Origin: a virus
Length of the DNA: 64,000 bases
IMG/VR virus record: IMGVR_UViG_3300045988_141580
Direction: 5' to 3' (one strand)
Part shown: in pieces, positions 20,827-35,518 of the stretch
How positions within the stretch are numbered: position 1 is the first letter of the stretch
How the letters are laid out: each line of letters opens with the position of its first letter
Position numbers and translations under genes: made by a program
The notes under the pieces: generated by a model
Told to the model about the DNA's origin: nothing
Databases searched by the model: none
What the model saw: only the letters and a program-made list of their open reading frames with translations

Positions 20827-23073
20827 TCAGGATATTGTCCAATCTGCATTGGAAGTAATGGTAATTGCCTTACCCTCTCCATTGGCCACAAAGGACAATT
20901 CTGTCGGAGTGACATCCAATGATGCACTTACTCCAGCCTGATTGAACGTAACATCAGTGGTGGCCAACTTTGACCCCTCTCCAGTGGCCGTAACCATAAC
21001 CACAAAACCATTTCGAGGAGAGGTTGACGTATTCTGTGTCACAGTCACCGTCGCACCGCTAAGACTGAATCCAGTCTTGCTTGTCTTGACCTCATAAGCA
21101 AATGACACACTTCCTGCACGAGTGCTGCCTGATGTATAGCTTACAGTCTGACTTGCATTAGGTAATATCGTGCTTGAACCACCAGACGCTGGAATGGAGA
21201 CTGGAGTTGTGGCCGTAACAGAAACATCCCCATAGATGGCCTCATTGGCCCCCTGATAAACGGTGACTGAATCAGAACCAGACTTGCCGTTCAGCGTCAC
21301 GGTGGCTGTTAATGTTCCAACGCTTGACCTTAATTTTACTGTTGTGCCAAGACTGTCAGCACTCACAGGCGCTCCATAGGAAACCACCCCTCCAGATGTA
21401 ATTGTTGACAGTACTTCAGACGCTCCAGAAGTATAATACTGATTCTGACCTTGAGAATAGGTAACCGTACCACTGGAAATCATACCACCACTTGCTGGAA
21501 TATCATCATTAACAGTAAGTGAAACAGACGGAATGTCATACTCAATGGAAGTCTTCTGGTTCGCCTGTTGATAGACAGAAATGACAAAGGTCTCGTAAAC
21601 GCCAACTTCGATGGTAAACCTCACCCTAACATCAATTACATTCCTCCTGGATTTCATATTTGTACCCAGACTATCCGCTGTCACATAACCGTTGGACGTG
21701 TCAACTACGGCATTACTATACGAACTACCACCACCCCAGTACTTGCTATATGATATACTCATAGATTCACGAGAAATGGCCTCATAGGATCCAGATGTAT
21801 AACTCCAGTAACAAGGATAGTCCTTAATTGTAGGTATAGCCGCACCTCCATCAGCACCAATATCACTATAGGTAACAGGCTGTGAATTAAGTTTCAAAGT
21901 CTTATCGTTCGCTTCCTGATAGACATACATCATTCCTGAAGCTGACTCCCCACCATTTCCAGTCCAGGTAACAGCCTGAGACTTCACCAAGGTAATTTCA
22001 GAGACAGTCGTCCCCTTGGAAGAAACCGTGCCAGAAATAAAAGAAACTGATGGATCTATGGATTCATCTGTCGTCACAGCCTCTGACGTCTGTACTGTAT
22101 TGGTGGCTTCTGACGTATAGGTGTCAGTGCGATATGTGGCCGCAACAGTCTTGTTCTGAGAACCTTTTCCAGCCGTGGCCGTTCCAGTACCACCGCTTGC
22201 CGCAATGGTGGCGTTCGTGATGGTTCCAATGGACACACTACCATAGGTGACCTCCCCGCCTGAATCAACGGAACTCTCAACCTTGTTGGCTTCCTGTGAC
22301 ACTATTACGGTGGCAATGGTTCCTTGATATGAACCTGTCACGGTCGTTGACCGTGCGTCACCCACGGTGGTTCCACGAGTGCCGACTGACACAACATTTC
22401 CGGATGATACACTAAACACAGCACCTAACACAGTACATGTCGGAATAACGCTATCCGTTAAAATAAGCGAACCATTTCTGTACGTCCGTAACGTGCCTAA
22501 AATAGTGGACGAACCACCCTTTGCGGCAATCGTGGACACGGACGGTGAAAGCGTAAGTGTATAGGTGACAACAGAAGCGGCCTGATTCAATGTCCACGTC
22601 GCCTTTGCACCACTTGCTGTCGTAGCCGTAATCGTGAAACTAAGAGCTGATGTTCCAGTGTTTACAGGAACTGTCACTGATATGCTGAACTCATATTGAG
22701 AGGACGCTCCTGGGTCGCCTGTGATGACCACCCCATTGGTAGCTGTCGAGCCATTGACCGTATAGGATAACGAAACAATAACATCCGTAGAGCTTGAAGC
22801 AAATGTTAGTTTGGAAGAATTCGATAACCCACTCAGGGTAAGCGTCTGCCCCTCCCTGTCAACAGAGACAGACGCATCACCTGTAATGGATACAAACTCT
22901 TCAAGTGCTTTCTGCACCACTGTATATGAACGACTAACGGAAAGCCCCTTAACGGTGGCCGTCACACTCGTGGAACGTGTATTACGTCCTGTGTGATTCG
23001 TTCCAGTATTCGTCAAGGTGGCGTTCCCTGAGCCGGACATAGGATATACAGTAAGCCAAGATGATTTTGCCAT
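20827..23073 (-). CDS. Ser/Thr-rich multi-repeat BACON/Ig-like fibre or decoration protein
   Basis: 748 aa with about 6 repeats ending in V/Y-x-Q-x-A-N. The N-terminus is the second half of a BACON-like domain and the C-terminus is the first half. Confidence 0.65.
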   Translation of the reverse strand: MAKSSWLTVYPMSGSGNATLTNTGTNHTGRNTRSTSVTATVKGLSVSRSYTVVQKALEEFVSITGDASVSVDREGQTLTLSGLSNSSKLTFASSSTDVIVSLSYTVNGSTATNGVVITGDPGASSQYEFSISVTVPVNTGTSALSFTITATTASGAKATWTLNQAASVVTYTLTLSPSVSTIAAKGGSSTILGTLRTYRNGSLILTDSVIPTCTVLGAVFSVSSGNVVSVGTRGTTVGDARSTTVTGSYQGTIATVIVSQEANKVESSVDSGGEVTYGSVSIGTITNATIAASGGTGTATAGKGSQNKTVAATYRTDTYTSEATNTVQTSEAVTTDESIDPSVSFISGTVSSKGTTVSEITLVKSQAVTWTGNGGESASGMMYVYQEANDKTLKLNSQPVTYSDIGADGGAAIPTIKDYPCYWSYTSGSYEAISRESMSISYSKYWGGGSSYSNAVVDTSNGYVTADSLGTNMKSRRNVIDVRVRFTIEVGVYETFVISVYQQANQKTSIEYDIPSVSLTVNDDIPASGGMISSGTVTYSQGQNQYYTSGASEVLSTITSGGVVSYGAPVSADSLGTTVKLRSSVGTLTATVTLNGKSGSDSVTVYQGANEAIYGDVSVTATTPVSIPASGGSSTILPNASQTVSYTSGSTRAGSVSFAYEVKTSKTGFSLSGATVTVTQNTSTSPRNGFVVMVTATGEGSKLATTDVTFNQAGVSASLDVTPTELSFVANGEGKAITITSNADWTIS
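22705..22731. repeat. 27-nt exact direct repeat, copy 1 (cgctcctgggtcgcctgtgatgaccac)
   Basis: Identical to 24166..24192; encodes VVITGDPGA in both paralogues. Confidence 0.9.
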
Positions 23074-23083
23074 AATACACCCC

Positions 23084-23395
23084 TTATTCTATTGTCCAAT
23101 TGCCAGTAGTCGTGATTTGAATGGTCTTTCCAGAAGTTGGATCATCTGTAAAACTCAATGAAGTAGGACTGACTTCCAAAGTATCAACGGATCCTCCAGA
23201 AGCCTTTTTAACAGCATCCAGATTCACAAACCAAGCCCCTTGATAGGAAGCAAGGCTCGTCTCGTCGAACTTGCCTGTTCTGACAAGCTCGCTCTTGCGA
23301 ACAAAGGCCGTCGCAGAAATGCCGATGTCAGTCGGAGTGATACCCCCGATATCAGCCGCTTGCTTGGCCGTCGCGAAAGGTCTAAGTTCCGCCAT
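23084..23395 (-). CDS. Small protein ending in a first-half BACON-like segment
   Basis: 103 aa, C-terminus TLEVSPTSLSFTDDPTSGKTIQITTTGNWTIE. Its stop lies 10 nt before the ATG of the 748-aa gene. Confidence 0.7.
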   Translation of the reverse strand: MAELRPFATAKQAADIGGITPTDIGISATAFVRKSELVRTGKFDETSLASYQGAWFVNLDAVKKASGGSVDTLEVSPTSLSFTDDPTSGKTIQITTTGNWTIE

Positions 23396-23398
23396 ACG

Positions 23399-23614
23399 CT
23401 ACTTCGTGTTTCCAGCCCCACCCTGTGCATCGACAAACTTGGTAAAAACAATGTTCCCGGACACAGAGTTGATCTTATCAATAATCTGTTGACCTGTAAG
23501 ATTCGCCAGAATCTGCTCGGAGGTCATAATGCTGGAAGGATTATTCTTCCAACTGCGAACCTGCTCAATTGCAGCATCCACTTCAGCTCCAGTAAATTTT
23601 GATTTGTATGCCAT
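23399..23614 (-). CDS. Small fibre-associated hypothetical protein
   Basis: 71 aa. The N-terminal KFTGAEVDAAIEQV resembles fibre N-terminal motifs. Confidence 0.55.
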   Translation of the reverse strand: MAYKSKFTGAEVDAAIEQVRSWKNNPSSIMTSEQILANLTGQQIIDKINSVSGNIVFTKFVDAQGGAGNTK

Positions 23615-23656: not shown

Positions 23657-23842
23657 TTACTGCTCCTTCAGCACCCCATAGGGGGAATCATCAGCCACAA
23701 GCATCGAATCTTCATCACCCATAGGTATAAACGGCTCACGCAGACCAAGATGAACAACAACAAAAGAATCCTCCGCTGGAAGAGTTCCTTCAGTCAATCT
23801 GCCTGTGATTTTCACCTCTCTGTCAAATTCCTCATTTATCAT
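23657..23842 (-). CDS. Small acidic hypothetical protein
   Basis: 61-aa ORF downstream of the terminator hairpin. Confidence 0.45.
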   Translation of the reverse strand: MINEEFDREVKITGRLTEGTLPAEDSFVVVHLGLREPFIPMGDEDSMLVADDSPYGVLKEQ

Positions 23843-23925: not shown

Positions 23926-24558
23926 CTACGAGAGTGTCCAGGCGGTGTTGGACTTGATGCCCTGAGATACAGCCTCACCGCTTGCCTCGATAGTGATGCT
24001 TTCCTTGTCGAAGCTGAAGGTAGGATCTCCGGCTGTCTGCTTAATGGTGATCTGAGCGGTGGCTGCATTGTCACCTGCCGTAACAGCAAGAGCACACTGA
24101 AGCTCATTGATAGTAAGGTTCTCAGCGATACCTGTAAAGGTAATGCTAAACTCATACTCTGCTGCCGCTCCTGGGTCGCCTGTGATGACCACATTGTTGG
24201 TGGTGGCTGCACCTGCTGCTGTGTAGGATTCAGGAAGAGTAAGGGAAAGATCGTTGACCGTACCCTCTGCGTTGTCAACAAGACTGAACGCAAGTTTAGC
24301 GGAATTGGACTTACCCTTAATGGTGAGAGAACCACCATCCTTGCCGACAGTAATCTCCGTGCCATTGTCAAAGGACACGAACTCAGGCTTCGGCTTCTGA
24401 ATTACGGAATAAGTTTTGTTAGGAGATACTCCAGTGGCTACACCTGTAACAGTTGTAGTTCTCTGCACACGTCCAGTGTGGACGGTGGCTGTGTTCTGTA
24501 CGGTTGCATTACCCTGTCCTGATGTAGGACTTAGAGTCAACCAAGCTGCTTTTGCCAT
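23926..24558 (-). CDS. BACON/Ig-like decoration or fibre protein (paralogue of the 748-aa protein)
   Basis: 210 aa. N-terminus MAKAAWLTLSPTSGQGNATVQNTATVHTGRVQRTTTV. C-terminus SITIEASGEAVSQGIKSNTAWTLS. Has its own -7 box and a strong terminator, which suggests high expression. Confidence 0.7.
   Translation of the reverse strand: MAKAAWLTLSPTSGQGNATVQNTATVHTGRVQRTTTVTGVATGVSPNKTYSVIQKPKPEFVSFDNGTEITVGKDGGSLTIKGKSNSAKLAFSLVDNAEGTVNDLSLTLPESYTAAGAATTNNVVITGDPGAAAEYEFSITFTGIAENLTINELQCALAVTAGDNAATAQITIKQTAGDPTFSFDKESITIEASGEAVSQGIKSNTAWTLS
24166..24192. repeat. 27-nt exact direct repeat, copy 2
   Basis: Identical to 22705..22731. Confidence 0.9.
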
Positions 24559-24622
24559 AGAACAAAAAGATTTAATTAAACACTATAATAAAACTTGTAA
24601 AAAGTTCCTTCCTTTATATAAC

Positions 24623-24631
24623 GCAAATATA
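24623..24631 (-). promoter_or_regulatory. -7 box TATATTTGC upstream of the 210-aa gene
   Basis: ACTATATTTGC on the minus strand, 65 nt before ATG 24558. The same extended word occurs at 38153, 42463 and 45973. Confidence 0.4.
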
Positions 24632-24651
24632 GTTATAAAACATATTCCTCA

Positions 24652-25530
24652 CTACTCAAGCGTCCATGTTGTCTGCGCCATCACTGTCTGCTCACCATAA
24701 TTCTCATTATTCAAATAAAGAATGTCCACACCAAAGTTGAATAATTCGCCACCGTACTCCAAAACCCAGTCCGTATTCGACAGAATACCCATATCACCCT
24801 CTGCCACCAGAGCATCCAGCCACAGATACGGATTGGTGAAGAAAAAATACTTCCCAATCGGCTCCGGCTCCGGCATTTCAAAATCACTGACAGGAATAGG
24901 TGACTCAAACTTCACACACGACATCAAGTCCTGACGTATAAGTGAAGCACAATCCTCACTCTCGGTAACATCTATGGAAACCGTCTTTATAATAACAGGC
25001 AGAGGAAACAAACTATTCTCAGCCACAAGCTCAGACGTGGAGAACGAAAAGTTTAGAAACTCCTCCTCAAAGATGTTCCTCGCCCCCTGCAACAAGGCAT
25101 AAAGCACCTCCCCCATCAACAGTGATTCCATAGGATTATCACTAAAGCACATCAGGTTCACCTTTGAATTGCTTGTCACACTAAATGCTTCCCTCTGATA
25201 TCCAGGGGCACCAAACGAACTCTCCGGATCACCGATTCCTCCCAGTGGATTGGGCTGTGTCTGCTGACGTGACGGCTCTCGAACCACAATACACGGAAGA
25301 GCCACCTTATCCTTCGGATATTCCAGTGTGACAGCCACCTTACGAGAACTCTCATTGGTTCGCAGAAACATCTTTCTGGCCTGTTCATAGAAGTCAAAGC
25401 TCCCGTCCCGAGCACCCCAAAACATCTGATATAGAAATGTCTGTGTCTCAGGAATTCCACTGTTATAATCTCGCTGAATATAGTCAATCAGCCCTAAGAC
25501 AAGTCTCTTAATTCTCGCTACAAGTATCAT
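24652..25530 (-). CDS. Hypothetical neck/head-proximal structural protein
   Basis: 292 aa. The C-terminus carries ILSNTDWVLE and a terminal TTWTLE, resembling the first-half BACON ending. Confidence 0.65.
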   Translation of the reverse strand: MILVARIKRLVLGLIDYIQRDYNSGIPETQTFLYQMFWGARDGSFDFYEQARKMFLRTNESSRKVAVTLEYPKDKVALPCIVVREPSRQQTQPNPLGGIGDPESSFGAPGYQREAFSVTSNSKVNLMCFSDNPMESLLMGEVLYALLQGARNIFEEEFLNFSFSTSELVAENSLFPLPVIIKTVSIDVTESEDCASLIRQDLMSCVKFESPIPVSDFEMPEPEPIGKYFFFTNPYLWLDALVAEGDMGILSNTDWVLEYGGELFNFGVDILYLNNENYGEQTVMAQTTWTLE

Positions 25531-26300
25531 AATTGCGCCAAAAAATTATCAATCGCCATATCCGCCACAATATAGATGTCAGCCTGATCCAATGCCTTAT
25601 CCATAAACTTATGAGCATCAAACCCCGGATGAATCCACGAGTTAGGATCACTTCTATCACTCACACGCCTGAATGTCATATAGCTGCCTCGGTTCTCCTT
25701 GTCGGTGGATGAAACATTCACACGCACCAAACCGAGATACTTCGGAGCCTTATGAGTGTACTCTGGTATAACACCCCTCGCTGTAACAATCTCCTTTCTG
25801 CTACCAAGCTGCCTATACTGCTCCGGAAGCTGTGCCATAGACACTCCACGACCACCATTATTCTTCGCTATATCGTATATCTCCTTCGGTAGAACGCTCT
25901 GAAATATGCCTGATTCAGCGACCGCTTCAGGAGTGGCATGTCTAAACGGAACTGTCAAATACCAGCCGCCACCCATAGCCTTAAGACGCTTCCGTGGAGA
26001 GGCCTCGAAGAACGGCTTCTCATCCCAAGCCTCCTTGCCCTCCTCCAAGGCCATAGCAAGACCATTCTCACCCTCACGCAACCCAAATATAACCTCCGTG
26101 GGACTCTTTTTGTCGACATACATCGCATTCTTATAAACATTGCGAAGCCCCTTTAGATTATTATCAACAAGATTCTCCCATTTGGAAGTGTACTCCACGA
26201 CTATTCTGTCAATGATAACATCACTCAGTTCCATTGACTGTGTAGCCGTAAGAGCAAACTCCTCAACCACCTCACTAATATCTATATTCAAAGGCATCAT
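25527..26300 (-). CDS. Hypothetical head-tail joining module protein
   Basis: 257-aa ORF with 4-nt overlap coupling to its neighbours. Confidence 0.65.
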   Translation of the reverse strand: MMPLNIDISEVVEEFALTATQSMELSDVIIDRIVVEYTSKWENLVDNNLKGLRNVYKNAMYVDKKSPTEVIFGLREGENGLAMALEEGKEAWDEKPFFEASPRKRLKAMGGGWYLTVPFRHATPEAVAESGIFQSVLPKEIYDIAKNNGGRGVSMAQLPEQYRQLGSRKEIVTARGVIPEYTHKAPKYLGLVRVNVSSTDKENRGSYMTFRRVSDRSDPNSWIHPGFDAHKFMDKALDQADIYIVADMAIDNFLAQL

Positions 26301-27091
26301 CTCTCTATATCGTCATTAATCAACAGACCGCCACCACCATAGTTAGGCTTCCCCACGAGTAAATGAGTTCTCCTGCCAATACTTTGAACAGGCATCTTCA
26401 ATATCTGAAACTGTCCAGACATCTTACCCCTGCCAAGTGAAGCCCTTATCTCGTGCGGCATATCTATTATATGATATTCAACTCTATGTGTATAGACTAT
26501 GGAAATAGCCGTGTCAGGCGCAACGTTTCCCTTCGTGAATCTAAGACAATAAGGATTATCCTCCATAATCTCATAACAAGAATCATCCAGCCGATACAAC
26601 TTCTGATCGGAACCATAGAACTTATACACCCTTTCAATCGTTACAGGCGCATAGGAAAGGAAACATATCACGCTCTCATCAACGGTCTCGGTAACAAGCC
26701 GTGACTCCGTAAAGGTCGCAATTTCATCCTCAACAGTCACTCTGTTGAGAAAGGATACAAGCCGTTTATCCTCATCACGAACCGTAATGGCCGCTGTTCC
26801 CATCAACTCTGGATTCCATTGAACATAGTTGGTGGAACGATTCAAGCCTGTTATAAGAGCCTTGGTACGCACTGGATTGATGAAGAAGTAGCCAAATCCG
26901 TGACAGTTCTCACAGTCCGGAAGTGCTGCATCAGAACTTCCACAGCAAGGACATCTAACAGCCTGTTCACAGACAACATCATATCCATGTGACCAGATGG
27001 CCGCATCAAAGTCATTGGGTCTGAACTGAACAGCGGGTTGTCCATACAATGACGCTTCAGGCGCATCAATTATGTTTCTATCCTTTAGCAT
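26297..27091 (-). CDS. Hypothetical structural protein with DnaJ-type CxxCxGxG zinc knuckle
   Basis: CPCCGSS...CENCHGFG motif; 264 aa. Confidence 0.65.
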   Translation of the reverse strand: MLKDRNIIDAPEASLYGQPAVQFRPNDFDAAIWSHGYDVVCEQAVRCPCCGSSDAALPDCENCHGFGYFFINPVRTKALITGLNRSTNYVQWNPELMGTAAITVRDEDKRLVSFLNRVTVEDEIATFTESRLVTETVDESVICFLSYAPVTIERVYKFYGSDQKLYRLDDSCYEIMEDNPYCLRFTKGNVAPDTAISIVYTHRVEYHIIDMPHEIRASLGRGKMSGQFQILKMPVQSIGRRTHLLVGKPNYGGGGLLINDDIER

Positions 27092-27174: not shown

Positions 27175-27298
27175 AACAAGGTTGTAATGAGTAAGTACAG
27201 GTTCATTACGTAAATTTAGAGAGCATGACGCTTTAAGCAAATTCCTAAATTCCTTAATATAAGCCAGACAAAAATCAATAGTTTGTCTGGTTTATTTG
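27175..27298 (+). ncRNA. Candidate ~120-nt small RNA (promoter to terminator, no ORF above 8 codons)
   Basis: Bounded by the 27141 promoter and the 27264 hairpin plus T-run. Internal hairpin gtaatga/tcattac. Confidence 0.3.
27264..27290. terminator. Bidirectional hairpin overlapping the stop of the 470-aa gene
   Basis: 9-bp stem ccagacaaa/tttgtctgg with a 9-nt loop; followed by TTTATTTGTT on the plus strand. Confidence 0.6.
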
Positions 27299-28687
27299 TT
27301 CATAATGACTACGTCGCACATTTTCGTCTTCAATAATTTTGGAATTCCTACCCCTCGAAGAATCATAAGAAGTCAAAATAAAATGCCGCACAACTTGATT
27401 CCCATATAAATCCTTAGACACTTCCACACTAATAACAAAAGATTCACCTTTTTGATTAAGCAATTCATACGCTCCATTCCTTTCATTAAATTTTACCTCA
27501 AATGAAGAAGAATCTTTTTGAAACCTAATCAAATTATAAGTAAGTACGTCTTCCGCATTTTTAATGGATGAAAAATCATTCTGTTGAACAAAATGTCGCA
27601 AAAGGATATGTTTTAGACCTTTATCTGCATCACCCCAAACCATATCTATTGAGGTCTCAACCATTAACGGTTCCCCTCCAACTTGATAAACTTGATAAGG
27701 CCTACCATTTTCATCAATATCTATTGCTGGAAGATTTATTTTTACAACATCGTATGCTTGACCAGTTTTTCTTCTAAAAAGTGCCTTAAAAGCTTGTCGA
27801 GGATCACCAACAAAATCCCTAAAAATCTGTCCATATCTTCCTCTAACAAATTTATCTTTTACATCATCATACCAATACCTCCATCGCCCATTACGCCATT
27901 CACGACGAATGTACTTATAGGACTTCATTAGGTATCGCTCCGTAAGATTTAGGAACACGGACTTCTTCACTTCATGCTCCTTACGATGCCATTCCAGCCA
28001 AGCGTAGGACGGCTTCGTTCTGCCATAACCATTCTTCTTCTGCGCCCATTCATAAGCATAGGCTCCACCGCCTAAATCAACTGCATAGATATCAGTCCAT
28101 TCAGGGTGCTTTGCTGCAAATTCCTCAGATTTGGCATAGGTGCGCTCATTTCTTCCAAATTCCTTACCCTTAAAATCACCTGAAATTGATTCCCAGTAGT
28201 TATCCAGTTCCTGCTCCTTCTGACGACGCCTATCCATTTCTTCCTCACGCTTTCGAGCTCGCTCCTGAATAGCATCATAATGTTCCTTCGCATAATCAGC
28301 AAGTTTCTTCACATCTGAATCATAGGTAAAGAAATCCTCATTCATAACACGATGTATATTCGTAACAGAATGATCGCTGATTCTAAACTTTAGACCATAG
28401 CCCTGAACATAGGTGCTAACACCAAAGTCTGTAATTGAACGACTGATATAGAATTCACCAAGACCACGCTTCTTCAACGCTGAAAGCAATTCCTGAGCCT
28501 TGACGTACTGCTGATCAGAGACACGTTCCTGTGCTCTACGTCGTGCCAGACGTTCATCCTGCTCCTGCCGCATTCTCTGCTCAGACACACCATAACGCTG
28601 ACCAACACGCCCAAGCCTACGATTCTCAGGTGTATTGGCATATATACCAGAACGTGCCTTGAGGAATATTTCAGTCAATGTTAGCAT
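27275..28687 (-). CDS. NRRLGRVG-motif protein with C-terminal putative nuclease/toxin-like domain
   Basis: 470 aa. N-terminus SGIYANTPENRRLGRVGQRYG. Contains YKYIRREWRNGRWRYWY. C-terminal GLKHILLRH segment (possibly PBECR-like; unverified). Confidence 0.6.
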   Translation of the reverse strand: MLTLTEIFLKARSGIYANTPENRRLGRVGQRYGVSEQRMRQEQDERLARRRAQERVSDQQYVKAQELLSALKKRGLGEFYISRSITDFGVSTYVQGYGLKFRISDHSVTNIHRVMNEDFFTYDSDVKKLADYAKEHYDAIQERARKREEEMDRRRQKEQELDNYWESISGDFKGKEFGRNERTYAKSEEFAAKHPEWTDIYAVDLGGGAYAYEWAQKKNGYGRTKPSYAWLEWHRKEHEVKKSVFLNLTERYLMKSYKYIRREWRNGRWRYWYDDVKDKFVRGRYGQIFRDFVGDPRQAFKALFRRKTGQAYDVVKINLPAIDIDENGRPYQVYQVGGEPLMVETSIDMVWGDADKGLKHILLRHFVQQNDFSSIKNAEDVLTYNLIRFQKDSSSFEVKFNERNGAYELLNQKGESFVISVEVSKDLYGNQVVRHFILTSYDSSRGRNSKIIEDENVRRSHYEQINQTNY

Positions 28688-33234: not shown

Positions 33235-34563
33235 TTACATAACAACAAAGATGGGGTCACCAACATAGTCCGTGCCATTCTCATTAACGGAAGTAAACTC
33301 CTCTTCCTTAATTCTGAAATTCACCGAACCATTCCGCAGACCATTCCGCAAGACATCAATTAACTTGCTCATATCAGAATCTTCACCAACATAGCTCACT
33401 GCACACTGAACAAGCCTATTTGTCTCTGGATTTTCCTCGTAGGAAACACTATGAATAAACAATGGCTTGACAAACTTAATTGTCTCCGTGCCATTCACAA
33501 CCACCTCATCAACACCGTTGATTCCCTTCAAAAGCGTCTCAACGCCACACATCGGGTCACGAACAGGCATAGTAAGTTTCCTAACGTCACCCTCCATGCT
33601 CTCCGGAATGACAGCTGCTGCATTCTCCGTGGACAGTGCCTTTTTCACAATGTCAGAGCAGATTTCCTTAAAGCACTGAACAGACATACGACCGTCCTGA
33701 ACAGCCTTGACAACAGTGTCAAGCGGCTCAAGGGAATCCATACGCCACACTCTGTTCATCATATTCAGCACGTTCTTCCCTTGGTCAAAGATGAAGTTCT
33801 TCAACGGAATCTCACTTAAATCAATCCACTCATAAAAGCACTCCTCCGTGGCGTCAACCGTAATCGGCTGCCCTGCATCCACATAAACCTGAAAATACTG
33901 AATATGGGCATCAGAGTTCTTATACTCACCAAGATAACGAATACCTCTGGCCGCAATAGGGTCAAGGTTCGTCTCCTCCTTAAACTCACGCAAGGCGGCT
34001 GTCTTAAAGTCCTCGTTAGGCTCAACGTGCCCTCCAGGAATGCACACTTCACCTGTCGGACACATCTCGTCGTCAACACGATGCAGAATAAGGATCTTAC
34101 CGTCCGATTCACGCATAACAACCATGTCAGCGTATCGAACAGGCTTGCCGTCCACTGACTTAACAAGATTGAAATACTCACCCTCATTCAACTTGCCAGC
34201 CTTGCGAAGCTCCATCAAGCCTTTCAACTTGCGGCTCTTGGCAACCTCATCACGCACCTCCTGACACTCCTCAACAAGTACGTCAATTCCCTTCAGAATC
34301 TTCTCACGCTCATTGACACAGGCTGTGACACGCTTTGTGTGACCTTTCATGAAGTCAGCGTGCTTCGCAAGCACATCAGCTCTTCTGGAATCAGGCACAC
34401 CCTCACCGATGCTGTCAACAATGGACTTCTGAATAGAGAACTGATGAGCAAGTTCCTTACCCTCATCCTCTATCTGAGCAAGCCTCTTCCTAAGATCGTG
34501 ATACTCCTCCAGCTTTTCCTGTGGAGTCATTATCCCAAGCCATTTCTTGAATCTCATAATCAT
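33235..34563 (-). CDS. Nudix-domain protein in the head module
   Basis: Nudix box GHVEPNEDFKTAALREFKEETNL (G-x5-E-x7-REUxEExxU). Start trimmed to ATG 34563, just after the MuF-like stop at 34571. Confidence 0.75.
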   Translation of the reverse strand: MIMRFKKWLGIMTPQEKLEEYHDLRKRLAQIEDEGKELAHQFSIQKSIVDSIGEGVPDSRRADVLAKHADFMKGHTKRVTACVNEREKILKGIDVLVEECQEVRDEVAKSRKLKGLMELRKAGKLNEGEYFNLVKSVDGKPVRYADMVVMRESDGKILILHRVDDEMCPTGEVCIPGGHVEPNEDFKTAALREFKEETNLDPIAARGIRYLGEYKNSDAHIQYFQVYVDAGQPITVDATEECFYEWIDLSEIPLKNFIFDQGKNVLNMMNRVWRMDSLEPLDTVVKAVQDGRMSVQCFKEICSDIVKKALSTENAAAVIPESMEGDVRKLTMPVRDPMCGVETLLKGINGVDEVVVNGTETIKFVKPLFIHSVSYEENPETNRLVQCAVSYVGEDSDMSKLIDVLRNGLRNGSVNFRIKEEEFTSVNENGTDYVGDPIFVVM

Positions 34564-34570
34564 ATAATTT

Positions 34571-35518
34571 TTATACGTCATAATGTTTGTCACCGATATC
34601 AATATGAACCTTGCTTCTGCGCTGCACCTTACGAACATAGTTCTTAGGAGGCTCAAACCTATGATTCTCTTCATTCCACACATAACCCTCTGGAAGCCTG
34701 TTTATTAAACAGCGGCAATATGGATGCACTGGATGTACTGTCGGCTTCCACTCCTTTGACTTCACACCATAGTTCGTGCCGTTGGCCAACAACTCCGATA
34801 ACCTGAATATCCTCGGCTGCGACCCCACACCGTGTGTCAAGTAGAGGCGAATACAGTGCTTGCACGCTCCAGGGTACACCTGAAAGAACACCTTGGGATC
34901 ATCTTCATCCTGCATAAACGTCTGCGCTCTGCCGAGATTAAACACGTCCTGACACTCCGTCTCCACAATACGACCCCAGTCCCTGTTCCAGTCATCCATC
35001 TGATGCGCTATGTTAGAGGCTATCTTCTGCACCGTTCTCTTCTGAACAGTGCCGTTCAGTATCTCGTCATGAATGACCTTGTTCGCTTTTGCGGCCTGTT
35101 CAGTCTGAATATAGGACATCTCCTCCGCTGAGATAGCATTCCTCACGTCATTCTTCAGTCTATCACCAAAACCCTTTATATGAGTGTATGTCTTATTCGC
35201 TGCCACGTCATAGAAGGACAGTTCCATCGCAGTCGGGACAAAATCACCCATTTTAGGAAGAAACTGCAACAGGTCAGAATAACCCATCGTCCTGGTGATA
35301 GAATCGCCCAGTGCAGCCGAAACACGACCAAACAGAAACGACTGATAATGTACTGGAAACTTCGGAATCAACTTTAATAGATCAACACCACGCTTTCTCA
35401 GAATATCCAGATCATACTTCGTAAGATAGTTTCTACCGAGAACACGAGCTATCAGCTTGGCCGTGGACAAGTCCACTTCCTTCAGAATACGCTGTATGTC
35501 CTTGTCAGTAAAAAGCAT
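34571..35518 (-). CDS. MuF/SPP1-gp7-like minor head protein
   Basis: CKHC...VHPVHPYCRCL signature, immediately downstream of the portal. Confidence 0.75.
   Translation of the reverse strand: MLFTDKDIQRILKEVDLSTAKLIARVLGRNYLTKYDLDILRKRGVDLLKLIPKFPVHYQSFLFGRVSAALGDSITRTMGYSDLLQFLPKMGDFVPTAMELSFYDVAANKTYTHIKGFGDRLKNDVRNAISAEEMSYIQTEQAAKANKVIHDEILNGTVQKRTVQKIASNIAHQMDDWNRDWGRIVETECQDVFNLGRAQTFMQDEDDPKVFFQVYPGACKHCIRLYLTHGVGSQPRIFRLSELLANGTNYGVKSKEWKPTVHPVHPYCRCLINRLPEGYVWNEENHRFEPPKNYVRKVQRRSKVHIDIGDKHYDV

Follow-up and report, generated by a model that had tools for sequence, protein, structure and literature searches.

The 64,000-nucleotide viral sequence IMGVR_UViG_3300045988_141580, referred to here in its full length as the window, comes from a gut-type phage and contains a run of minus-strand genes in which a BACON domain, a small domain of sugar-binding type, is divided between the products of neighboring genes. 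An open reading frame (ORF) of 103 amino acids (aa; 23084–23395) ends ...TTGNWTIE at a TAA stop codon (23084–23086). After a spacer of 10 nucleotides (nt), read from the sequence as GGGGTGTATT (23074–23083), a 748-aa fiber-like protein (20827–23073) opens with ATG GCA AAA in the +1 frame relative to the upstream ORF. On the minus strand, the junction thus reads ...ACT GGC AAT TGG ACA ATA GAA TAA GGGGTGTATT ATG GCA AAA TCA TCT TGG CTT ACT. The original prediction had placed a stop, a 10-nt gap, and a new ATG in the +1 frame between the two conserved Trp residues of a BACON domain, and the sequence agrees except that the upstream codons, quoted as ACC GGC, are ACT GGC, a synonymous difference. 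The 103-aa protein consists of an N-terminal domain of ∼66 aa (FATAKQAADIGGITPTDIG..., 23198–23395) followed by the first part of a BACON domain (the N-half, TLEVSPTSLSFTDDPTSGKTIQITTTGNWTIE up to the stop, 23087–23182). The 748-aa protein begins with the rest (the C-half, MAKSSWLTVYPMSGSGN...YTVVQKA, 22906–23073) and continues through a middle domain of the type found in a 210-aa protein encoded upstream and many beta-rich repeats. It closes with another N-half (SLDVTPTELSFVANGEGKAITITSNADWTIS up to the stop, ending ...NADWTIS-stop, 20830–20922, found with an N-half hidden Markov model [HMM]), and the sheath gene lies 138 nt further on. Its first 165 residues have the same layout as the 210-aa protein. 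Homologs of the 103-aa protein (99–295 aa) all carry the N-half at their end, homologs of the 748-aa protein range from 355 to 1774 aa, and the spacer between the two measures 7–26 nt in relatives, with varying sequence and frame.

Taken singly, these protein ends matched only parts of the BACON families Pfam PF13004 (61 positions) and PF19190 (viral BACON, 94 positions, cutoff 25 bits). The N-termini of the 748-aa and 210-aa proteins matched the second half only (PF13004 9–61 of 61; PF19190 40–92 of 94), with Pfam scores of 18.6–20.1 bits, below cutoff; the 748-aa C-half as a fragment scored 26.8 bits. A Pfam scan of the whole 103-aa protein gave no match, and its last 38 aa alone matched PF19190 2–30 of 94 at 14.5 bits. 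When the tail of the 103-aa protein was artificially joined to the head of the 748-aa protein, the match extended over PF19190 2–92 of 94 at 35.0 bits, as expected if the joined ends make up one BACON core, which is what had been predicted. Joining the 748-aa tail to the 210-aa head gave PF19190 2–89 of 94 at 38.9 bits, and joining the tail of a 292-aa protein, also encoded upstream, to the 210-aa N-terminus gave a PF19190 match of 25.9 bits. No full-length BACON match above cutoff was found within any one of the 103-, 210-, and 748-aa polypeptides; the artificial joins alone pass. Positions 4–55 of a profile of the 210-aa family (alignment A1) matched the solved BoGH5A BACON domain (3zmr_A) over residues 42–92 only. 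The two Trp residues at the junction (W-TIE/MAKSS-W) are 8 residues apart, and in naturally fused relatives the gap is 7–8 (WSISQLPAW, or FEAFIQNADW, in which F replaces the first Trp); the SG.GN turn is present in the C-halves of both the 210-aa and 748-aa proteins. Four proteins in the window (292, 210, 103, and 748 aa) end W-T-[IL]-[ES]-stop and two (210 and 748 aa) start MAKxxWLT, and in total there are five N-half modules on these four proteins and two clear C-half starts. Because the N-half HMM was made from 210-family proteins and missed the N-halves of the 103-aa and 292-aa proteins, these two were judged by the Pfam joins and by direct reading. The division of one domain in two is thus real, but the junction belongs to a larger system in which at least five proteins bear half-domain tags.

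The same arrangement had been proposed at 24558/24652 with a 93-nt spacer, and it is found there. Upstream lies the gene for the 292-aa protein (24652–25530), whose core of ∼200 aa is followed by a C-terminal extension with two N-halves. Module a (residues 227–258, KYFFFTNPYLWLDALVAEGDMGILSNTDWVLE, 24757–24852) has the motif P.Y.WL....SNTDW.L., of the type found in the small UP proteins described below and kept in every extended homolog. Module b (residues 260–292, ending ILYLNNENYGEQTVMAQTTWTLE, 24655–24753) takes the chain to its end 3 aa past the Trp (...TTWTLE-TAG). The spacer (24559–24651) has two further in-frame stops, three with the ORF's own. It also contains TATATTTG at 24624–24631, so a candidate for the −7 box that had been predicted in this spacer is present, but the motif TANNTTTG shows no clear excess in the window (50 matches versus 38 ± 6.6 expected; 8 of 100 shuffles reached 50). 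As a separate observation, 11 of the 13 exact copies of the octamer TATATTTG in the window are on the gene strand, some in intergenic gaps (minus-strand positions include 24624, 26084, 38154, 39584, 41470, 41526, 42244, 45635, 45974, 50691, and 57529). It fits the Bacteroidota −7 promoter box TAnnTTTG and so hints at the host phylum, with the degenerate pattern marginally above chance.

By its modeled fold and its gene position, the 292-aa protein is a tail-terminator (neck) protein. AlphaFold2 (AF2), given an alignment of 45 sequences, modeled residues 1–200 at a predicted local distance difference test score (pLDDT) of ∼90–95. Foldseek matched this core to the neck of phage 812 (8qkh_G, E 6.7e-7, TM 0.48/0.50) and further to 8kef_a (the cyanophage A-1(L) gp7 terminator), 9cc7_F, 8fvh_M, and 3fz2 (lambda gpU), the matches including the E217 and Pa193 necks. 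There was a weak Pfam match to SP10_terminator, and a phmmer search against the PDB gave nothing meaningful. The genes run portal, major capsid protein, 264 aa (phrog_1004), 257 aa, and 292 aa, and then sheath (544 aa) and tube. In the matched structures the terminator is a hexamer. Modeled alone, the C-terminal extension has a pLDDT of 47–67 and module a 56–62, with no C-half present. Terminator homologs bear zero, one, or two N-half modules. The three module-free homologs examined (L085, L086, and L087) lack a SELF gene, as we call relatives of the 210-aa gene, downstream, whereas the N-half-extended terminators had one in 12 of 12 cases examined. In L087 the sheath gene directly follows the terminator homolog, and L085 retains the 103-like/fiber pair with its split junction (...SNVSWNIK-stop, 12 nt, MGKESWLEVSPSSGIGD).

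The 210-aa SELF unit (23926–24558) has a C-half at residues 1–56 (MAKAAWLTLSPTSGQGN...YSVIQKP, 24391–24558; PF13004 8–61 of 61, PF19190 40–89 of 94), a middle beta domain of ∼120 aa (residues 57–175), and an N-half at residues 176–210 (FSFDKESITIEASGEAVSQGIKSNTAWTLS up to the stop, ending ...NTAWTLS-stop, 23929–24033; N-half HMM 4.5e-15). A word-indexed search returned 1812 homologs, nearly all of 208–213 aa, and an exhaustive search 734 cluster representatives, the best 150 of which are ∼90% about 200 aa long and align end to end at identities down to ∼32%. Across the 38 diverse SELF members of alignment A1, the termini are the best-conserved parts, with a start of MAKxxWLxxxPxSGxGN...HTGRxxR and an end of SNTxWTxS-stop, 3 residues past the Trp. 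Half-domain HMMs found both terminal halves in 119 of 150 representatives (200–1300 aa). Five to six matches are bacterial signal-peptide proteins with 8–15 intact internal BACON-plus-middle units, a plausible source of the module. PHROGs has no family for the 103-, 210-, or 292-aa proteins, and no GenBank phage was matched by megablast of 10 kb.

The short spacer and +1 frame of the window junction would suit another possibility raised at the outset, namely that some ribosomes shift, hop, or read through to make a 103–748 product with an intact BACON domain. Programmed frameshifts are known in phage structural genes, and lambda G/GT and T7 10A/10B are programmed frameshift fusions in which neighboring structural ORFs likewise differ in frame and leave a very short gap. 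We nevertheless reject ribosomal fusion as extremely improbable, because spacer length, frame, and stops vary between junctions. Over 44 junctions, spacers ranged from −16 to +103 nt and the three frame offsets occurred 19, 14, and 11 times, with no conserved frame, spacing, or shift site between the junction ORFs; spacer sequences and stop codons also vary among relatives. In the near-identical relative L001, which encodes an identical 103-aa protein, the junction reads GAA TAG GGGTGTATT ATG, a spacer of 9 nt, one base shorter than that of the window, so that TAG + 9 nt replaces TAA + 10 nt and the frame relation becomes 0. The +1 frame in the window has a TAG just before the stop, the sole candidate shift site is GAA-TAA, and AAU is non-cognate for tRNA-Glu; several in-frame stops stand in the 292/210 spacer. 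No tRNA gene was found in the window, and hence no suppressor tRNA. Unlike in lambda and T7, neither a slippery site nor a frame or spacing is conserved, and the downstream ORF begins with a conserved Met-Ala-Lys start of its own. No clear C-half comes after the N-half of either the 210-aa or the 748-aa protein (the genes that follow are a 61-aa ORF and the sheath gene), which argues against every such site being a recoding site. Stop-codon reassignment was also rejected: there are no tRNA genes, all three stop codons serve as terminators (TAA, TAG, and TGA end 24, 13, and 12 long ORFs in the window), and the ORFs are intact under code 11. Protein trans-splicing, considered in passing, was set aside because the halves fill the whole BACON profile and leave no room for intein sequence.

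The division of the domain recurs far beyond the window. We surveyed gene order in 80 IMG/VR loci plus other contigs, from myovirus-like phages of ∼100 kb and from phages of 35–75 kb. In 28 of the 29 dereplicated cases, the gene directly before one with a C-half start had an N-half at its end. The rule was kept in all 11 myovirus-type cassettes examined, and the L085 junction and two Crassvirales families supply three further examples. The split arrangement was found in more than 100 independent contigs, and an assembly or sequencing artifact is rejected on this ground. In the 35–75-kb clades, the order is UP (63–137 aa, N-half only), SELF (∼202 aa, both halves), and DOWN (84–470 aa), with DOWN proteins having a C-half at the start (PF13004 10–61) and no N-half at the end. 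The ∼100-kb myovirus-like cassette opens with the terminator (293–316 aa), SELF (207–215 aa), and a DOWN-like protein (84–102 aa) with a degenerate C-half. It continues with a relative of the window's 71-aa protein, a 103-like protein (99–295 aa, always ending in an N-half), and the fiber (355–1304 aa), the N-terminus of which is always MAK[SD]SWLTV. In Crassvirales cr111_1, a 126-aa protein ending ...TNLTFTIK-stop is followed after 1 nt by a 209-aa SELF protein, and in cr127_1 a 70-aa protein ending ...SNTNWTFND-stop is followed after 10 nt by one of 211 aa. GenBank names both of these SELF genes 'lipocalin-like protein'. In public records (MT774387.1, 1744–2373; MT774393.1, 62917–63552; UniProt A0A8S5TEI1), SELF-family proteins are labeled 'lipocalin-like protein' or 'cellulase'; these labels are probably wrong and seem to stem from glycoside hydrolases that contain a BACON domain.

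Many of these proteins hold one half only. N-halves alone occur in the 292-aa terminator, the 103-like proteins, and the small UP proteins, and C-halves alone in the DOWN proteins and in the long fibers P0213 and P0218. Because such proteins lack a partner in their own chain, completion of the domain is possible for them only in trans. Fused versions were also looked for among homologs, as had been suggested, and were found for each type of junction. In P0183, an unrelated domain at the N-terminus precedes an intact BACON domain (UP-type N-half plus SELF-type C-half), after which come the middle domain and an N-half at the end of the chain. P0128, P0146, and P0208 are SELF-SELF tandems in which the internal BACON domain is intact and both ends carry half-domains, and P0255 fuses SELF to DOWN (DOWN-type C-half HMM, E 1.2e-7). 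To judge by these sequences, a 'Rosetta-stone' fusion exists for every kind of gene junction, with the upstream N-half and downstream C-half contiguous as one domain. In a member of a 58-kb clade (L012, 4612–5961), a DOWN protein with a C-half only has an ALK/LTK-type glycine-rich domain (PF12810, E 1.7e-26) right after it, so that different effector domains are mounted on the same C-half. Some large BACON-repeat proteins have, where an N-half would be expected, a second C-terminal motif, G.G...I..M.VG(T/S).F.VR-stop (L016, 113–3271; the P0134 C-terminus; and L096, 3035–3751, in cr127_1; GNGLAIPNMVVGTSFLVR, GGIGEMIVESNFFVR, and GIGRLKIGTNFIIR, each up to the stop), which may be another kind of terminal tag.

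We lean, with modest confidence, toward reassembly of the halves in trans, as a plug and socket by which immunoglobulin (Ig)-like adhesin fibers are docked. The cut falls in the loop that separates the two conserved Trp residues of the BACON domain, with the N-half (the 'socket', the first ∼30 residues) at the very C-terminus of one structural protein and the C-half (the 'plug', the other ∼55 residues) at the very N-terminus of the product of the next gene. Translated separately, the halves would most likely refold in trans into one BACON domain, joining two virion proteins non-covalently. In the window, the 103-aa protein would hold the 748-aa Ig-like fiber, and the tail terminator at the neck, with two C-terminal sockets per subunit, would hold the 210-aa unit. 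The terminal sockets of the 210-aa and 748-aa proteins would allow chain extension, and plug-only proteins may act as caps in other clades. The BACON/Ig-like proteins displayed in this way are probably adhesins for glycans or mucus. The anatomy of the split system is well supported and the mechanism moderately supported. The original prediction of an ancient split with reassembly is upheld as to the split by the fusions, by the single-half proteins, and by a split site and exact termini that are kept down to ∼32% identity and across unrelated phage groups; the trans refolding itself, the pairing of particular halves, the virion location, and the adhesin role are what we infer. On pairing, the N-half of the 103-like protein and the terminal N-half of the fiber are 60% identical within a genome and 46% between genomes (permutation p ∼0.001, n = 7), and both are ∼21–31% identical to the N-halves of SELF proteins and terminators, which suggests that the 103-like and fiber N-halves have been shaped by the same plug. 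The fusions and the joint occurrence of extended terminators with SELF genes also point to neighbors as partners. In the AF2 models, the orphan N-halves of the 292-aa protein have a pLDDT of 47–67 next to a core at 90–95, as compared to 95–97 for the N-half of the 210-aa protein, which has a C-half available; this too speaks for docking.

Several results weigh against docking between chains. Modeled alone, the 210-aa protein is compact and all-beta (pLDDT 96.1, predicted TM-score 0.84, termini 93–97), and independent BFVD models of homologs superpose on it over its full length (TM 0.85, root-mean-square deviation 2.0 Å). Its own two halves can thus apparently close on each other, and in the predicted monomer they are presumably packed together. 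Mean-field direct coupling analysis of 270 SELF sequences (effective number 119) recovered the strand pairings within the C-half and gave a weak excess of couplings between C-half and N-half (13 of the top 80 versus 9.3% expected). The five N-halves in the window outnumber the clear C-halves (two, or three with the degenerate one), so that some sockets would be empty or chains would need capping. Only gene order places the 103-, 210-, and 748-aa proteins in the virion, and the likeness of N-halves within genomes could come from duplication or gene conversion, the seven genomes being few and non-independent.

The compact monomer, the superposable homolog models, and the weak couplings would be accounted for if the C-half and N-half of the same chain, in the 210-aa and 748-aa proteins, formed one circularly permuted BACON domain. 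The split at the gene boundary would then be a by-product, and for the N-halves of the 292-aa and 103-aa proteins there would be another partner (e.g., a plug-only DOWN protein) or none. Retention of both halves in 119 of 150 representatives, over lengths of 200–1300 aa, points the same way. The 210-aa and 748-aa proteins have the halves in swapped order (C-half first, N-half last); the 103-aa and 292-aa proteins have an N-half only. We nevertheless regard closure of a chain on itself as unlikely. It would leave unpaired an N-half that is strictly conserved in the 103-like proteins, as plugs in the myovirus cassettes occur only on the 210-aa, 748-aa, and degenerate DOWN-like proteins, and it does not account for single-half proteins on both sides, such as P0213 and P0218, which have a plug and no terminal socket. 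Natural fusions join UP to SELF and SELF to DOWN, and no UP-DOWN fusion was seen, although no search was aimed at one. Loss of the terminator N-half goes with loss of the SELF gene, and the looping back of a 748- to 1300-aa string of beta domains would be awkward. A domain-swapping chain modeled alone would likewise give a closed AF2 monomer, and the compact monomer together with the weak couplings fits either self-closure or head-to-tail pairing between copies.

Junctions also lie exactly between highly variable modules (upstream proteins of 99–295 aa, downstream fibers of 355–1774 aa), and the bacterial surface proteins with 8–15 intact BACON-plus-middle copies are a plausible ancestor. The halves could be what is left of a broken ancestral multi-BACON protein, kept as linkers for recombination at a boundary of module exchange, with no fold relevant to assembly. 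This strikes us as quite improbable. The conservation is in protein and not in DNA, with differing spacers, stops, and codons and no megablast match in GenBank phages. Exact chain ends, 3 aa after one Trp and 5 aa before the other, are kept down to ∼32% identity, and a linker needs no such thing; unpaired beta fragments of 30 and 55 aa would be exposed and prone to aggregation. Docking by plug and socket and exchangeability of modules can, moreover, both hold.

A possible but doubtful extension of plug-and-socket docking is a pilus-like, non-covalent polymerization. Its anchors would be socket-only proteins (the terminator and 103-like proteins), its extenders the ∼200-aa units and long fibers, and its caps or effectors the plug-only proteins. 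Chaperone-usher pili and the type V pili of Bacteroidota assemble by donor-strand complementation or exchange, in which the neighboring subunit completes an Ig-like fold. The analogy would lie in an incomplete Ig-like fold completed by the next subunit and in head-to-tail chains with an anchor, repeats, and possibly a cap. Pili donate a single strand, however, whereas the phage halves (∼30 + 55 residues) each make up roughly a third to a half of the sandwich, and no chaperone, usher, or processing protease is evident among the neighboring genes, whose Pfam and PHROGs matches are to phage head, neck, and tail proteins only. The top PDB match of the 210-aa model in Foldseek was a donor-strand-complemented CfaB fusion (3f85), a generic Ig-like similarity (TM 0.32). 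SpyTag/SpyCatcher (a split CnaB2 Ig-like domain) and split GFP are engineered split-domain tags for joining cargo, with SpyTag forming an isopeptide bond. By analogy, a beta-rich domain is cut at a permissive loop and would be reconstituted from two polypeptides; those tags are man-made, whereas the phage split would be natural and evolutionarily conserved and gives no sign of covalent linkage. Circular permutation and three-dimensional domain swapping resemble the phage system in the swapped half order of the 210-aa and 748-aa proteins and in the closed form suggested by the AF2 model. As in domain swapping, one and the same interface could be used either in a closed monomer or in an open chain, but simple circular permutation does not explain partners with one half only on both sides. 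Tandem domain swaps are treated in PMC6863430.

Phage BACON domains, Ig-like decoration proteins, and donor-strand complementation in pili are each known already. Tandem BACON repeats are described in crAssphage (PMC6949934), and modular Ig-like adhesins in PMC13370021, where display on another phage of BACON/Ig-like proteins from phages of gut Bacteroidota (an unassigned myovirus-like group among them) raises epithelial binding. The proteins in those accounts belong to the same domain family once the halves are joined, to the same phage groups (crAss-like and myovirus-like), and to the same tail/neck setting, where an adhesin role is likely. As described there, however, the BACON domain is intact within one polypeptide, whereas here it is divided between adjacent gene products. 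A term search of the two articles found no passage on split or half domains. SELF-family N-terminal strings were absent from the PMC13370021 supplements, which does not tell whether the adhesins described there belong to this family. In the literature searched, which did not extend to subscription journals, we found no precedent for a split, half, fold-complemented, or domain-swapped phage BACON domain and no account of neighboring phage genes that systematically encode a BACON or other Ig-like domain in two parts.

If plug-and-socket docking is correct, a natural split Ig-like domain assembles virion appendages in phage groups that are among the most abundant in the human gut, the crAss-like and the ∼100-kb myovirus-like phages. 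Docking of this kind would account for the attachment of BACON/Ig-like adhesins to the particle and for their exchange between phages, correct routine misannotation as 'cellulase', 'lipocalin-like', or hypothetical proteins, and mean that protein-by-protein domain searches miss domains divided between genes. Protein engineering and phage display would also gain a ready-made pair of short tags (∼30 and 55 aa) already tested by evolution. Were polymerization to occur as well, Ig-like adhesin chains of variable length and composition could be built head to tail, and phages could swap distal modules by merely keeping the plug.

Two small genes lie between those for the 210-aa and 103-aa proteins. 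The 61-aa ORF (23657–23842, minus strand) is an N-terminally truncated homolog of the DOWN-like proteins of 82–102 aa in L011 and L088–L094. These relatives have a basic N-terminal tail followed by the degenerate C-half ..SG.N.GFDR..TVTGRT.EG...SF.V.Q.GLREPF, and the L088 homolog gave a weak C-half HMM match; in L001, a longer reading is possible from an alternative start. We tentatively assign the ORF to the half-domain system, where it may be a decaying cap or plug protein. The 71-aa protein (MAYKSKFTGAEVD..., 23399–23614, minus strand) is conserved across the cassette, as is the N-terminal domain of the 103-aa protein (FATAKQAADIGGITPTDIG). Both resemble the N-termini of longer fibers where the split system is lacking (in L086, a 389-aa protein starting MGYKSKFKGS...), and they may be virion-attachment parts.

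Elsewhere in the window, also on the minus strand, a 470-aa protein in the head/neck block (27275–28687) has a C-terminal match to PBECR1 (a Barnase/EndoU/colicin-like nuclease) of 23 bits, below the cutoff of 27.6. Its homolog in L003 is 282 aa long, the N-terminal ∼200 aa being different. Between the portal and major capsid genes, a 482-aa protein (33235–34683) matches NUDIX/MutT hydrolase PHROGs (E 4e-14), an unusual gene in a head-morphogenesis block. Finally, the 264-aa virion structural protein of phrog_1004 (26297–27091) contains a Cys cluster, CPCCGSSDAALPDCENCHGFGYF, conserved in all relatives examined, a pattern suggestive of a metal-binding knuckle.

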